Shown piece by piece: positions 35,510 through 43,070 of a DNA stretch of 64,000 nucleotides. The DNA is from Candidatus Bathyarchaeia archaeon (GTDB lineage Archaea > Thermoproteota > Bathyarchaeia > 40CM-2-53-6): assembly GCA_050013255.1 (NCBI GenBank), contig JBEKFP010000001.1, positions 256,001 to 320,000 of the forward strand, read 5' to 3'. Numbering within the stretch: the stretch's first letter is position 1; the number at the start of each line of letters is the position of its first letter. The position numbers and the translations under genes were made by a program. A model generated the notes under the pieces. It was given only the letters and a program-made list of their open reading frames with translations. It was not told the origin of the DNA and did no database searches.

Positions 35510-36457
35510 CTATGATGGTGCTTCTCCAAGAACCACAGTTACCGTGCCTTGTCCGTTGTTGCGCCCGATCGAGAGTTCGAGGTTCTCGCCGACCTTCTTG
35601 TTCTGGACAGAATGCTGCAAATCCTCCCAGCTCTTCAGCGGCTTCTTGTCGGCTTCTAGGATTACGTCGCCGGCGGATACGCCGCCCTGGTTAGCAGGGC
35701 TACCCCTCCCCACTTTGACAACCAATACGCCGTTCTCGCTTGGGATATCGTATGATTCAGCTATATCCCTGTTCAATGTCATACCTGAGATTCCTAGGTA
35801 CGGTCGGACAACTCGTCCGTTCTGTAAGATTTCCTTCGCAATTCTCCTGGCCGTATTGATTGGGATGGCGAACCCAATGCCCTGCGCAAACGGTATGTTC
35901 GCCGTGTTAACACCGATAACCGACCCCGTGCTGTCAACCAATGGGCCGCCGCTGTTTCCCGGGTTGATTGCTGCGTCGGTCTGAATCAAATCCTCATACA
36001 TGTGATCTTCGATGTGTATGTGCCTCCTCAGCGCACTTACTACGCCAACGGTTGCAGTCGGCCCTGGAAGCAAGAACCCGTATGGGTTACCAATCGCTAT
36101 GGCAATTTGTCCAACGACTAGGTTGTCCGAATCCCCCAACTTCACTTTAGGCAGGTCTTCGCCGTCCACGCGAACGACGGCAATGTCGGACATGGCGTCC
36201 GAGCCTAGAACTTCGCCTTTGAATTTCTTGCCTTCAGGGGTTACGACTTCGACGCGCGACGCATCTTCAACTATGTGGTGGTTGGTTAAGATTCCGCCAT
36301 TAGAATCAAATATTATGCCTGACCCTAAACCGCGTAATGGTATTGTGTCGAAGAAATTCTCGCGAATCACACGTAGAGTCGCCACAGTCACTACGGCGGG
36401 GCTGACTGTCTGGATCGCAGCAGTTACATCCTTCTCGTTAACAGGAATCAATTCCAA
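35510..36457 (-). CDS. HtrA/DegP-family serine protease with PDZ domain
   Basis: LTNHHIV, SDIAVV, TDAAINPGNSGGPL and a PDZ domain; no obvious signal peptide; probable TTG start at 36457. Confidence 0.93.
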   Translation of the reverse strand: MELIPVNEKDVTAAIQTVSPAVVTVATLRVIRENFFDTIPLRGLGSGIIFDSNGGILTNHHIVEDASRVEVVTPEGKKFKGEVLGSDAMSDIAVVRVDGEDLPKVKLGDSDNLVVGQIAIAIGNPYGFLLPGPTATVGVVSALRRHIHIEDHMYEDLIQTDAAINPGNSGGPLVDSTGSVIGVNTANIPFAQGIGFAIPINTARRIAKEILQNGRVVRPYLGISGMTLNRDIAESYDIPSENGVLVVKVGRGSPANQGGVSAGDVILEADKKPLKSWEDLQHSVQNKKVGENLELSIGRNNGQGTVTVVLGEAPS

Positions 36458-36740
36458 TGATACCTCGGAGCAAAATGAAAACAACCGCGCTCTATTTAAT
36501 GACTAACTGATGACAAAATCAGACAAGAGGGCTAACGAGATGGCTGAAGAAGTTCCTTAGGTGCGGAAAATGTGGTTACGAATCCCTTTCCGAAACGTTG
36601 AACTCACCATGCCCTAAATGCAAGAGCCAAACGCTCGAAGAGAAAGACACGAAAGCCTTGTCGGGCTTCGATGATTAGACAGACGTCACTGCACTAGCGT
36701 CTTGGCCAGTCTTTATTGTAGAGGAGTGCCGAACGCGGGT

Positions 36741-36845
36741 TGGCGCCCTTCGCCAGGAGAAGCCTAGGCTGCTCCTTTGGGCGGGATTCGAACCCGCGTC
36801 GACGACGTGACAGGCCGTCATCCTAGACCACTGAACGACCAGGGC
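36741..36845 (-). tRNA. tRNA-Asp(GUC) with a BHB intron (36749-36777) in the acceptor stem at 68/69
   Basis: GCCCTGG..CTGTCAC..GCGGG TTCGAAT CCCGC CCA[29 nt]GGGC G CCA; perfect BHB CGCC-CA^A-AGGAG..CTCCT-GGCG-AA^G. Confidence 0.9.
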
Positions 36846-36971
36846 ATCGGCATCCCAGAAATCGCTGTGCCAGCTTAAAGCATTGCTACAATATACACTC
36901 CCGGAACAGAGAAGACGCCTACCTTACGCTTCTTCGCAAGGATGTGACGAGATACGGACTCATATTCGATT

Positions 36972-38929: not shown

Positions 38930-39415
38930 TTGGTTGAGGGTAGATTGCCGAGGAAAACTTCGATCAGCGAGAGCAAAGAGGCCCCCGATTTCGCCCTCGT
39001 GGACCATGCGGGTAAGTTGGTAAGGCTTCGTGATTTTCGCGGGAAAAAGGTTGTTCTCTTCTTCTATGTTCGCGATGATACGCCAGGGTGTACGAAGGAA
39101 GCGTGCAGCTTCCGTGACGGCTATGGACCCTTGAAAGCCAGGGGTGTTGTGTTGCTAGGCATCAGCCCAGACCCGATAGAATCGCACAAAAGTTTCGCGG
39201 ACAAATACGATCTTCCGTATCCTTTGCTTGTTGACGCGAAGGCGGAGTTCGCAAAGAGGTTCGGCGTTTGGGGTAAGAAGAACATGTATGGCAGAACCTT
39301 CTTTGGGGTAATTCGCTCCACTTTCATCATCAACGAGAAGGGTAAGGTGGTGAAGGAATACAGGCGTGTGAAGGTGGATGGACACTTGGACCAAATTCTC
39401 AAGGACTTGGGATGA
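38930..39415 (+). CDS. bcp: Peroxiredoxin BCP/PrxQ
   Basis: DDTPGCTKEACSFRD. Confidence 0.92.
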   Translation: MVEGRLPRKTSISESKEAPDFALVDHAGKLVRLRDFRGKKVVLFFYVRDDTPGCTKEACSFRDGYGPLKARGVVLLGISPDPIESHKSFADKYDLPYPLLVDAKAEFAKRFGVWGKKNMYGRTFFGVIRSTFIINEKGKVVKEYRRVKVDGHLDQILKDLG

Positions 39416-39915
39416 CCATTAGGGCAACTGTCCTTAGCAGTGTAAATCCCATGGTAAACTTGGATGTCGCGTATGTCCCAACCCCCAAGGACATCGTTCG
39501 AAGAATGCTGAGGCTGGCAAGCGTACGTCGCGGTGAAACCGTTTTCGACCTTGGAGCGGGAGACGGGCGCATCCTGATTGAGGCGGTGAGAAGGTTTGGG
39601 GCTAAAGCCATAGGCGTGGAGGTGGACCCGGAACGCCTGGTTCGGATCAAAGAACGACTAACCGCGACTGGCACAGAGGCCGCGGTGATCCAAGGAGACT
39701 TTATGGAGGTCAACGTCTCTTCGGCCGATGTTGTCGCCATCTACCTTTCTGACTCTGTCAACGCTAAGCTGGCATCAAAGCTGAAGAACGAGCTCAAAGC
39801 TGGGGCGCGGGTCGTTTCCTTGGATTATACACTCCCAGGCTGGGCACTAGAGAAGGAGCTGACGGTCAAAAGCGGTGGTATTTCGCGCAAAATATACCTC
39901 TATAGGGTCGAATGA
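39412..39915 (+). CDS. Class I SAM-dependent methyltransferase
   Basis: YVPTP..V..ML, DLGAGDGRI, GARVVS. Confidence 0.88.
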   Translation: MTIRATVLSSVNPMVNLDVAYVPTPKDIVRRMLRLASVRRGETVFDLGAGDGRILIEAVRRFGAKAIGVEVDPERLVRIKERLTATGTEAAVIQGDFMEVNVSSADVVAIYLSDSVNAKLASKLKNELKAGARVVSLDYTLPGWALEKELTVKSGGISRKIYLYRVE

Positions 39916-40029
39916 GTCACGCACGTGCCATAGGAAAGTGGCATCTACATAAGTTACCCAGATGCCGGTCGAAACTTGTAAATAAAGAAGCATGCTACGC
40001 AGGTAGCAGGTTAGCATAGGGGAGGTGAG

Positions 40030-40248
40030 TTGTTGTCTAAGTTCAAGCTCCTCCTTCCTGCTATAGTCCTGGTCGTCTTAGTAGTCCTAATTCTGACCTC
40101 AAGCAACGCAAGTTACTTTTCGCCCGCCTGGTTATCCAAGGCTCTCTTGGGTGATGGAACTGGCGGAGGCGGACACGGCATTGCTAAGGCACTCTTGGGT
40201 GATGGTACTGGAGGCGGCGGTCACGGTCTCGCTAATGCTCTATTCTAG
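40030..40248 (+). CDS. Secreted/membrane-anchored precursor peptide with tandem KALLGDGTGGGGHG repeats
   Basis: SD GGAGGTGA before TTG; N-terminal basic plus hydrophobic segment; two 16-codon repeats differing almost only at synonymous sites. Confidence 0.8.
   Translation: MLSKFKLLLPAIVLVVLVVLILTSSNASYFSPAWLSKALLGDGTGGGGHGIAKALLGDGTGGGGHGLANALF
40138..40233 (+). repeat. 48-bp in-frame tandem repeat (2 full copies, plus a NALF remnant at 40234-40245)
   Basis: aaggctctcttgggtgatggaactggcggaggcggacacggcattgct / aaggcactcttgggtgatggtactggaggcggcggtcacggtctcgct. Confidence 0.92.
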
Positions 40249-40343
40249 AGAGGGGAACTTCCAGTTCATCCTCCTCCCGTTTTTGTGCAAAATATAAAGC
40301 TATTATACTCGCTGAGCCATCCCCGCTGAAACGGCGAACAAGG

Positions 40344-41507
40344 ATGCTTGCGACCGAGAAGGTTGGGTTCCTCCAAAGACACAAAATTGTTACGGAGATC
40401 ATTAAGCAACTCGACAGTACGAATATCAAGATTCTTTCCGCCTTGTGGGAAACTGGCCCACGGAACCTTCTCGAAGTTTCTCGGAAAACGGGAATACCAT
40501 TTACCTCTGTGTATCACCGTGTGGGCAAAATAGAGACAAAGTCGAAACGCCTCGCCGCTGTAATTCCGCAGGTTTCCAAACTTGGAATGGTGAGGATGGT
40601 TCTTCTCACCACTGCGAATCCGGGCTTCGAAGAGAGCGTAACTGCGGCGTTGAAAATACCAAACCTTTGGCGTTCCGTGAACCGATGCGAAGGCGCCTTC
40701 ACACACCTGTCAGTTCACGTCGTCCCCATACAATTCATGAAACATTTCAGGACATACCTGAAACGACTTTCCGAATTAGATTTGATTAAACAATCGAAAG
40801 TGTTCCTTGCAGGAGAATACATCCCTAACTTCCCGGCCTTCAAGTACTACGACCCTGCCTCTAATCAATGGACATTTGACTGGGGGCGCTGGTTGAACGC
40901 GCTTAAGCGGGACCCCACTAAGACGATCGAAGACCCGGAAAGCTATGCTATGCTTGCGGATGAGAAAGACCTAATGATTATCAAGGAACTTGAGAAGAAT
41001 GCCCGAAAGAGCTTCGCAGAGATTGCGCCGTTGTTGGGAATATCTTTGCAAGGCGTCAAGTACCATTACGACAAGAAACTGGTGCCATCTGAAATTGTGA
41101 AGTATTTTGGTTTCGATGTCTGGCCGTATCCCGAAGAAGTGTCGGCTTATCATGAGGTCTTGCTTAAGTTTACTAGCAGCGTAGAGATGAACCGGTTCTT
41201 CAGCTTAGTCGATGAGTTGTTCTTTGTACTCGGTGTCTCGAAGGTCCTACATCATAACTCGCTGATGGTACGAACCTACATGCTACAGAGCCAGGTGTGG
41301 AGCATGTTCTCTTTCTTCTCTCAAATGGCAAAGGAAGGAATGCTTGAGTCATATTCTTCTGTTAGGCAAGATTTCAGCGGCAGAGAGACACAATCAATAT
41401 CGTACGAACTCTTCGACCGCGAGAAGGGATGGACTTTCGATTTGGATAACTGCCTGTCAGAGCTGGCGAAACTAACTCAACTCACGCCAGTGGTCCAAAA
41501 GGTCTAA
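40344..41507 (+). CDS. Tandem (double) Lrp/AsnC-like wHTH transcriptional regulator
   Basis: Two AsnC-type HTHs: LDSTNIKILSAL..EVSRKTGIPFTSVYHRV and DEKDLMIIKELEKNARKSFAEIAPLLGIS..GVKYH. Confidence 0.8.
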   Translation: MLATEKVGFLQRHKIVTEIIKQLDSTNIKILSALWETGPRNLLEVSRKTGIPFTSVYHRVGKIETKSKRLAAVIPQVSKLGMVRMVLLTTANPGFEESVTAALKIPNLWRSVNRCEGAFTHLSVHVVPIQFMKHFRTYLKRLSELDLIKQSKVFLAGEYIPNFPAFKYYDPASNQWTFDWGRWLNALKRDPTKTIEDPESYAMLADEKDLMIIKELEKNARKSFAEIAPLLGISLQGVKYHYDKKLVPSEIVKYFGFDVWPYPEEVSAYHEVLLKFTSSVEMNRFFSLVDELFFVLGVSKVLHHNSLMVRTYMLQSQVWSMFSFFSQMAKEGMLESYSSVRQDFSGRETQSISYELFDREKGWTFDLDNCLSELAKLTQLTPVVQKV

Positions 41508-41510
41508 TGC

Positions 41511-41664
41511 TGGTCCCGCGGGCCGGATTTGAACCAGCGACGCTCCGGTTTCCGTTGTTAGCCTAGTAGGCTGACATGGGTACGCCTTGGGCGCACACCT
41601 ACAGCGTCTCCGTCGCTCCGAATAAGAGAGACTCGGAAGCTCTACCAGGCTGAGCTACCGCGGG
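41511..41664 (-). tRNA. tRNA-Tyr(GUA) with two BHB introns (41606-41633 at 30/31; 41550-41598 at 37/38)
   Basis: C1-G72 acceptor CCCGCGG/CCGCGGG; spliced anticodon arm TCCGG CTGTAGA CCGGA; encoded CCA. Confidence 0.9.
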
Positions 41665-41797
41665 ACCGATTCAAAGCCTTCGCTCTGTAGCCTATAAGGT
41701 TTCATGAACCATACGCCGAGCTTTCCGGCTTTCGTCTGAAAATATGCACCCGAGTTAAATTCCAGGAACAATTATTCTCGGCCTTGGGTTAGTTGCG

Positions 41798-42955: not shown

Positions 42956-43070
42956 TGGCGGGCCCGCGGGGATTCGAACCCCGGATCCCAGGCTTTCACC
43001 GCATCCGCTCCGAAGGCTTACACGAATCTGACGCATCTCTGTGTCTTAATCCTGGCTCGACTACGGGCCC
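42956..43070 (-). tRNA. tRNA-Arg(UCG) with two BHB introns (43018-43038 at 29/30; 42995-43009 at 37/38)
   Basis: Spliced anticodon arm CAGGC CTTCGGA GCCTG; BHB ACAC-AG^A..GTGT-AA^G. Confidence 0.9.

Follow-up and report, generated by a model that had tools for sequence, protein, structure and literature searches.

The locus described here raises the question of what purpose is served by a 72-residue protein with two identical glycine-rich cores, encoded immediately upstream of a gene for a tandem Lrp/AsnC-type regulator, and of whether the two genes act together. It is located in a 64-kb stretch of a genome from Bathyarchaeia (G000:C1:256001-320000; genome size 2.46 Mb), the whole of which is called the window below. 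Bathyarchaeia are abundant, uncultured archaea that take part in carbon turnover in peat and sediment. A sequence-only reading of the window had suggested that the small protein is a secreted precursor whose repeated cores are released and sensed by the neighbouring regulator, or alternatively a precursor of the RiPP kind (ribosomally synthesised and post-translationally modified peptides). The results presented here argue strongly that the peptide gene and the double-Lrp gene constitute a functional module. That this module works as an autoinducer-like signalling loop, in which the peptide is exported and the regulator acts at the promoter of the peptide gene and responds to the peptide, is the interpretation that we tentatively prefer.

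The small gene (P0001) is real. The open reading frame (ORF) is present as reported in the sequence-only reading, together with its strong Shine-Dalgarno sequence and an upstream TATA-like element, the latter conserved in relatives (Table 1). Translation starts with TTG, and the homologues of P0001 carry an ATG start codon at the position of its first TTG; moreover, either GGAGGTGA or GGTGGTGA is found 4-8 nt ahead of the start codon in 20/20 loci compared. The repeat within the gene is the sole tandem repeat reported by TRF in the window, a 48-nt direct duplication (40138-40185 and 40186-40233) with 83% identity, and the comparison with Rfam revealed no RNA family across the gene. An assembly artefact is ruled out, as the two-unit sequence recurs without any difference in contigs from four further peat/wetland sequencing runs.

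P0001 belongs to a family with more than 80 distinct members, small proteins of 42-82 aa encoded in peat and soil metagenomes. The search profile, derived from an alignment of ten genomic homologues, matched 63 clusters at 90% identity in a collection of 5.8 billion proteins, and an exhaustive hidden Markov model (HMM) scan of 1.84 billion proteins reported 29 representatives at 50% identity. All matches are 37-82 aa long except for two long repeat proteins (P0064 and P0080), which were judged to be low-complexity chance matches and rejected as family members; beyond the small-peptide family, these two were the only hits of the 1.84-billion-representative scan. About 45 members, with a typical precursor length of 42-45 aa, contain a single unit. 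Their signal part (26 or 28 aa) comprises a basic n-region and a hydrophobic stretch of ~19 residues, and closes with an invariant Val at position -3 and Ala at position -1 (V-x-A), directly followed by the G-D of the putative product. The latter (15-17 aa, G-D-x-x-G-G-G-(x)-H-x-I-I-x-A-L-F, with the His usual and not universal) ends the protein. Free variation among the hydrophobic residues of the signal part, together with constraint on V-x-A and on the product, is what would be expected of a cleaved Sec signal peptide; signal peptidase is thus predicted to cleave the precursor after V-x-A, and the genome encodes a single archaeal type I signal peptidase. The hallmarks of Sec/signal peptidase I substrates (basic n-region, h-region, small residues at -3 and -1) are conserved in the relatives, the site being less canonical in the clade of the window's genome, where the hydrophobic stretch is followed by S-N-A-S, N-V-S-Y or N-A-G-H, all weaker as cleavage motifs than V-x-A. 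Inspection by eye led us to reject a class III (pilin-type) signal peptide, given the lack of a K/R-G/A motif before the hydrophobic stretch and the position of the conserved motif after it. Metal binding centred on the His was likewise set aside as a general explanation, since distant family members lack this residue. A separate variant, with one unit and a His-rich C-terminus ending with G-H-H, is represented by L003:1217-1396 (G014), P0042 and P0047; it arose by deletion within the second unit and is kept in at least three clusters, and G014 is the closest relative of the window's genome, with a regulator 88% identical.

Alignment to the single-unit forms sets the register of the unit as G-D...A-L-L/F. 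This revises the sequence-only reading, in which the repeated 'A-KALL' was regarded as a processing site: single units begin right after V-x-A and end at the C-terminus, and 'KALL' is the hydrophobic tail of the unit. Across related genomes, a comparison that the same reading had recommended, the core is conserved and the number of repeats varies (one unit, or two together with a decayed copy). Two units are found in nine members, including P0001. The 13-residue spacer that precedes them in P0001 is probably a decayed third unit, because its counterpart in P0060 is a degenerate unit that still retains G-G-H.

The codons of the repeated cores are informative with respect to their history. The six third-position differences that had been listed between the two 14-codon cores are exact and all synonymous; over the full 16-codon repeats these six synonymous changes are accompanied by the single amino-acid change, ATT/CTC (Ile/Leu). 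Between the two 10-residue cores there are 5/30 nt differences in this genome and also 5/30 nt in P0014 (all synonymous in both cases), 3 nt in P0060, 1 nt each in P0002, P0017 and P0024, and 0 nt in P0011. Core differences between precursors of the G000 clade are synonymous without exception as well, in agreement with the earlier claim of selection on the peptide. By the evidence of their codons the cores are under purifying selection, and the synonymous-only spread (0 to 5 nt) points to old duplicates maintained by such selection, along with recent duplication or gene conversion. In comparisons of whole genes, synonymous and non-synonymous codon changes are about equally frequent; the non-synonymous ones spare the cores and fall mostly in the signal peptide.

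The peptide gene and the double-Lrp gene, whose co-occurrence had been proposed as a check, are linked at every testable locus. Exactly one copy of the peptide gene is found in 11 of the 23 genomes of the genus, all 11 copies are located ~100 nt upstream of a tandem-Lrp gene, and no orphan peptide gene was found in the 23 genomes. In 106 other Bathyarchaeia genera, represented by 278 genomes, the peptide profile had no match; the relatives that carry the gene are metagenome-assembled genomes of Bathyarchaeia from peat and soil, all in one genus. Metagenome contigs with enough flanking sequence contain the same pair (L092, L093, L095, L097, L098, L100, L103, L104), and in L102 the pair is inverted to a head-to-head orientation. 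The regulator family has 2-4 paralogues per genome. Peptide genes of the first clade, as in the window, are found at a peroxiredoxin-methyltransferase locus, and those of the second clade (L027, L033, L032) accompany another paralogue at another locus, without the methyltransferase and flanked by a gene with a metallo-beta-lactamase fold and one for a zinc-ribbon protein. The pairing thus persists across paralog duplication, relocation and inversion. The type of small gene found upstream tracks the regulator clades, with 5 changes on a quick maximum-likelihood tree versus 17 expected from shuffles, a measure that is inflated by kinship. In the fetched flanks of more distant regulator relatives (30-41% identity, other Bathyarchaeia genera) we found no recognisable signal-peptide mini-ORF. 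As a side observation, in L008 (G019), L022 (G016), L092 and L097 the regulator gene beside an intact peptide gene appears to be truncated, to 318 of 387 residues, or split into two pieces; sequencing frameshifts on long-read contigs probably explain part of these cases, and others may represent genuine decay with the peptide kept.

The downstream gene encodes, as reported in the sequence-only reading, a 387-residue protein with two AsnC-type helix-turn-helix (HTH) modules on the same strand, its start located 95 nt downstream of the peptide gene. Pfam matches cover residues 206-243 (HTH_24/HTH_AsnC) and 24-62 (HTH_20). In profile searches of PDB sequences residues 23-162 matched whole proteins of the ST1022 type and residues 205-337 matched PH0061, PH0140, LrpA, LrpC and AsnC. 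The AlphaFold model (pLDDT 92, pTM 0.89) exhibits two successive units, each composed of a three-helix winged HTH, a RAM-type beta-alpha-beta-beta-alpha-beta domain, and an extra strand and helix; this last extension, of ~35 residues, is conserved (a W-T-F-D strand plus the helix). The arrangement of an N-terminal winged HTH and a RAM domain that characterises Lrp/AsnC proteins therefore occurs twice in one chain. Foldseek searches with each half reported the same feast/famine regulatory proteins (FFRPs) as the sequence search, and the full-length model matched best NirDL (4ch7, TM 0.55/0.66, 12% identity), the sole solved full-length match to the fused double-Lrp architecture. The HTH regions are among the most conserved parts of the family, with invariant R40, N41, P52, V56, R59, R221 and K239, which is consistent with a DNA-binding role of the 387-residue protein. 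Since structurally similar tandem-Lrp clusters are found in several archaeal phyla and in Actinomycetota, the fused architecture itself is not new.

Potential cis elements are also conserved at the peptide loci. The promoter element TTGTAAATAAAG is nearly invariant in eight orthologous loci despite the divergence of the surrounding intergenic DNA, and occurs in a variant form in the other clades. Further upstream, a TTACC-type element occupies an equivalent position in most of the 20 peptide loci compared, among them those of the second paralog clade and the divergent locus, and is a candidate for an operator or a second promoter element. Genome-wide, the 12-nt upstream element has two sites, about the chance expectation, so that there is no evidence of a regulon; the second site is located ahead of a thiolase-like gene (G000:C1:564852). 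The T-run and A/T-rich box ahead of the regulator gene are kept as a pair in the closest orthologues, and the sequence suggests that the peptide and regulator genes are separate transcription units. A scan for promoters and terminators of the sigma-70 type yielded nothing useful, the model being unsuited to archaea. With respect to read depth, positions 39970-40000 (covering the promoter element of the peptide gene) and 40444-40481 (part of the first HTH of the regulator) form separate metagenome unitigs of about two to three times the depth of the flanks, which indicates that both are shared with co-occurring relatives or paralogues; on metagenome contigs the 31-mer at the promoter element has ~2x the depth of the flanking unitigs.

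Table 1. Features of the peptide-regulator locus (positions refer to the window)
Feature	Position	Strand	Remarks
Upstream element A-T-A-A-G-T-T-A-C-C (TTACC core)	39949..39958	+	~25 nt upstream of the TATA-like box
TATA/BRE (B recognition element)-like promoter element TTGTAAATAAAG of the peptide gene	39976..39987	+	~45-55 nt before the start codon across 20 loci
Shine-Dalgarno-like sequence GGAGGTGA	40021..40028	+	
Precursor gene of the predicted exported peptide (P0001)	40030..40248	+	72 aa, TTG start; ORF call and family homologues
Signal-peptide-like region, residues 1-27	40030..40110	+	Basic n-region, 19 uncharged hydrophobic residues, S-N-A; cleavage predicted from sequence
Spacer, 13 residues (28-40)	40111..40149	+	K-A-L-L tail as in the units; probably decayed first unit (comparison with P0060)
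Unit 1, residues 41-56	40150..40197	+	G-D-G-T-G-G-G-G-H-G, hydrophobic tail to A-L-L
Unit 2, residues 57-72	40198..40245	+	Identical 10-residue core, tail to A-L-F at the C-terminus of the protein
T5 run followed by A/T-rich TATA-like box AAATATAAAG, ahead of the regulator gene	40280..40299	+	
Tandem-fused Lrp/AsnC (FFRP) homologue	40344..41507	+	387 aa; Pfam, PDB sequence matches, AlphaFold, Foldseek

The slot upstream of the regulator has other occupants in other paralogues. A different small gene ('type B') encodes a non-secreted protein of ~55-85 aa with a C-x-H-C motif and is the partner in at least eight genomes of the genus. The second tandem-Lrp paralogue of the window's genome (G000:C1:1393470-1394558, locus L029; 54% identical) has such a neighbour, L029:1310-1504, a 65-residue protein with C-x-H-C and a conserved helical segment. 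One clade of regulators has in this slot a gene for a 184-residue protein (L039:963-1514 in G006, and L034 in G010), whose model (pLDDT 69) resembles the aromatic-sensor (V4R) domains of MopR/DmpR/PoxR and the Bet3 fold (TM ~0.5); the match to Pfam XylR_N is weak (E = 0.017). The V4R/MopR-like occupant, as modelled, suggests that the slot holds an input component. The weak similarity between the 65-residue type B protein and the 184-residue protein (27% identity, E = 0.17) is only a suggestion of a relationship.

Given these observations, we propose the following mechanism. In the ancestral and commonest form, a precursor of 42-45 aa would lose its Sec-type signal peptide by the action of signal peptidase I after V-x-A; the released product, 15-17 residues long, would consist of a glycine-rich head (G-D-x-x-G-G-G-x-H) followed by a hydrophobic tail (I-I-x-A-L-F). 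In the lineage of this genome the unit was duplicated, so that a decayed copy is now followed by two intact ones. From this precursor a 45-residue product containing both units would arise, or a pair of almost identical 16-mers if a second cleavage took place ahead of each G-D. The regulator most likely binds to the conserved promoter region that precedes the peptide gene, and the exported peptide may also modulate the activity of the regulator, which would close a loop with the layout of RRNPP systems made of unrelated parts. Our preference for a signalling loop is based on the propeptide architecture, the strict one-to-one retention of the two genes through duplication, relocation and inversion, the sensor fold found in the sister slot, and the capacity for import: the genome encodes ~10 peptide-binding proteins of the Opp/Dpp type, which speak for a general import capacity only. 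It is conceivable, and rather doubtful, that the cassette mediates cell-cell signalling between archaea, with a peptide of 15-17 residues sensed by a tandem-Lrp protein shifted from amino-acid to peptide sensing, as a local version of a wider archaeal class.

Several points weigh against the signalling loop. In the multi-unit clade L or M precedes G-D at the unit junctions; these are not signal-peptidase sites, and the release of separate units would hence need a further protease. The cassette is not linked to any gene for a transporter, a protease or an importer. Proteins of the Lrp/AsnC family bind amino acids and other small molecules at the interfaces of their RAM domains, and we know of no peptide ligand in this family. 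The regulators of different cassette clades are ~50% identical and the peptide core is nearly unchanged between them, and none of the genomes searched has two peptide cassettes; the little variation of the core and the lack of a two-cassette genome mean that there is no sign of diverging signal-receptor specificities. Finally, the His is seemingly central in this genome, but judging from the alignment it is missing from distant members. A complex prediction for the regulator and residues 28-72 of the precursor (score 0.00) returned no verdict and is evidence neither way.

In an alternative reading the peptide is only an output: the tandem Lrp protein would sense a small metabolite and switch on the peptide gene, and the peptide would act outside the cell or in the membrane without being sensed; it might, for instance, be antagonistic or surface-active, or belong to a matrix. 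The high conservation of the peptide between cassette clades is more in keeping with a fixed effector than with a private signal. Control of a neighbouring gene is common among local regulators, the peptide gene has conserved promoter elements upstream, and the known ligands of RAM domains are small, the matched structures containing Gln, Ile, Leu and Phe. On the other hand, typical bacteriocin loci include an immunity, transporter or maturation gene and none is linked here, the short product, neutral to slightly acidic, is unlike most membrane-active peptides, and a dedicated regulator of ~390 aa strictly one-to-one with a 15-residue product is unusual. We regard this alternative as possible, if somewhat unlikely.

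An unlikely alternative is that the signal-like part is not cleaved and serves as an N-in/C-out anchor that displays the glycine-rich units at the cell surface, e.g. as a subunit or modulator of a membrane protein. The basic N-terminus followed by an uncharged stretch of 19-22 residues would suit such a micro-protein, and the weaker cleavage motif makes it harder to exclude in the clade of the window's genome. Nonetheless, the invariance of V-x-A before G-D in the ~45 single-unit relatives, with a hydrophobic stretch free to vary, is not the pattern of a functional transmembrane segment. Linkage without function, with the small gene and the regulator being neighbours by descent only, is very improbable in our view. 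The carriers all belong to one genus and many of the linked loci share ancestry, and the methyltransferase gene is likewise syntenic with no apparent functional tie. However, the peptide-regulator pair is kept at a second, unrelated locus and after the head-to-head inversion, orphan peptide genes number zero in 23 genomes, and the methyltransferase behaves otherwise, staying where the peptide gene is missing and being absent from the second cassette.

This last gene, which encodes an S-adenosylmethionine-dependent methyltransferase (39412-39915), is located directly upstream of the peptide gene, and in G002, G003, G005, G007, G008 and G015 it adjoins the regulator even though the small gene is of a different type or missing. 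Because it is kept beside regulators with a type B gene or no small gene, it is a syntenic neighbour and not a part of the cassette; no other modifying enzyme was found linked at the relatives' loci examined. Sirohaem decarboxylases possess a conserved catalytic H-x-Y-x-R motif in the C-terminal sheet domain (PMC4145669). A RiPP-like precursor modified by the methyltransferase, which the position of that gene would suit, and a decarboxylase of the NirDL/AhbAB type, which the best full-length structural match would suit, are largely refuted, since the methyltransferase remains in six genomes without this peptide and is absent from the second peptide cassette, and since H-x-Y-x-R is absent from the window protein and from 21/22 aligned family members (the single occurrence being judged chance), no decarboxylase model of Pfam or NCBIfam matches, and the sequence matches are DNA-binding FFRPs.

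Compared with known systems, the cassette is closest in layout to the RRNPP(A) systems of Bacillota and phages (Rap-Phr, NprR-NprX, PlcR-PapR, AimR-AimP; PMC11343458, PMC10075063), with which it shares a propeptide gene of 40-80 aa beside a gene for a cytoplasmic DNA-binding or regulatory protein, and a precursor in which a basic n-region and a hydrophobic signal sequence precede a conserved product at the C-terminus. By its sequence features, a propeptide with an export signal beside the receptor candidate is found at every testable locus. Duplicated product units in some precursors are a further likeness, since the pheromone is tandemly duplicated in some propeptides of Rap-Phr systems (PMC11343458). 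However, the receptor candidate is a tandem Lrp/AsnC protein without tetratricopeptide repeats (TPRs), the system is found in an archaeon, the peptide gene precedes that of the regulator and has a promoter of its own, and the putative product of 15-17 residues would be generated by signal peptidase alone, in contrast to 5-10-mers trimmed by exoproteases. The cassette resembles RRNPP systems in layout and is not homologous to them.

The Rgg/SHP systems of streptococci are similar in the very small size of the precursor, its active C-terminal hydrophobic stretch with an acidic residue and glycines, and the location of the peptide gene adjacent or divergent to the regulator gene (as in L102), yet they have no sequence or fold relationship to this cassette. 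Export of SHP precursors depends on PptAB and their cleavage on Eep, and the receptor Rgg is of the TPR type. Each half of the regulator resembles by sequence and fold the Lrp/AsnC FFRPs of Pyrococcus (PH0061, PH0140, LrpA) and Sulfolobus (ST1022), which differ in that two units are fused in one chain here, each with the additional ~35-residue extension. NirDL and AhbA-AhbB share the fused double-Lrp architecture, without the catalytic motif or a match to the family models being found in our protein. With the yeast alpha-factor and cyanobactin precursors the two-unit form shares repeated identical product units within one exported precursor; unlike in those, there are no dibasic sites of the Kex2 type and no PatA/PatG-type proteases or recognition sequences, and most members of the peptide family are single-unit.

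We found no prior description of this peptide family or of its pairing with the regulator in the literature searched. To our knowledge, no peptide-based signalling system has been demonstrated in Archaea, and the same literature contained none. The cassette of an exported peptide and a regulator is new and built from new parts, and is a credible candidate for archaeal peptide signalling. It provides a concrete test case that can be synthesised: a peptide, a purified protein and ~130 bp of DNA. Should the peptide prove to be the ligand, the Lrp/AsnC family would be extended to peptide sensing, and the propeptide-receptor layout would have evolved convergently in a further domain of life; otherwise the peptide still represents an undescribed family of exported micro-proteins with a dedicated regulator.

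Further genes were noted in the surroundings of the cassette. An HtrA/DegP-like serine protease with a PDZ domain is encoded 3.5 kb upstream in the window (35510-36484, minus strand), and on the contigs of some relatives such a gene is found directly upstream of the methyltransferase (L095:795-1748). A tRNA-like gene with long insertions (41509-41670, minus strand; T-arm and acceptor end with CCA) ends 2-4 nt past the stop codon of the regulator gene. In the whole window ARAGORN reported tRNA-Asp (36771-36846) alone, from which it follows that intron-rich tRNAs escape this program here. A weak Rfam match to transfer-messenger RNA (tmRNA) at 42956-43070 on the minus strand (16.6 bits, far under the gathering score) is probably another intron-containing tRNA, and not a tmRNA.

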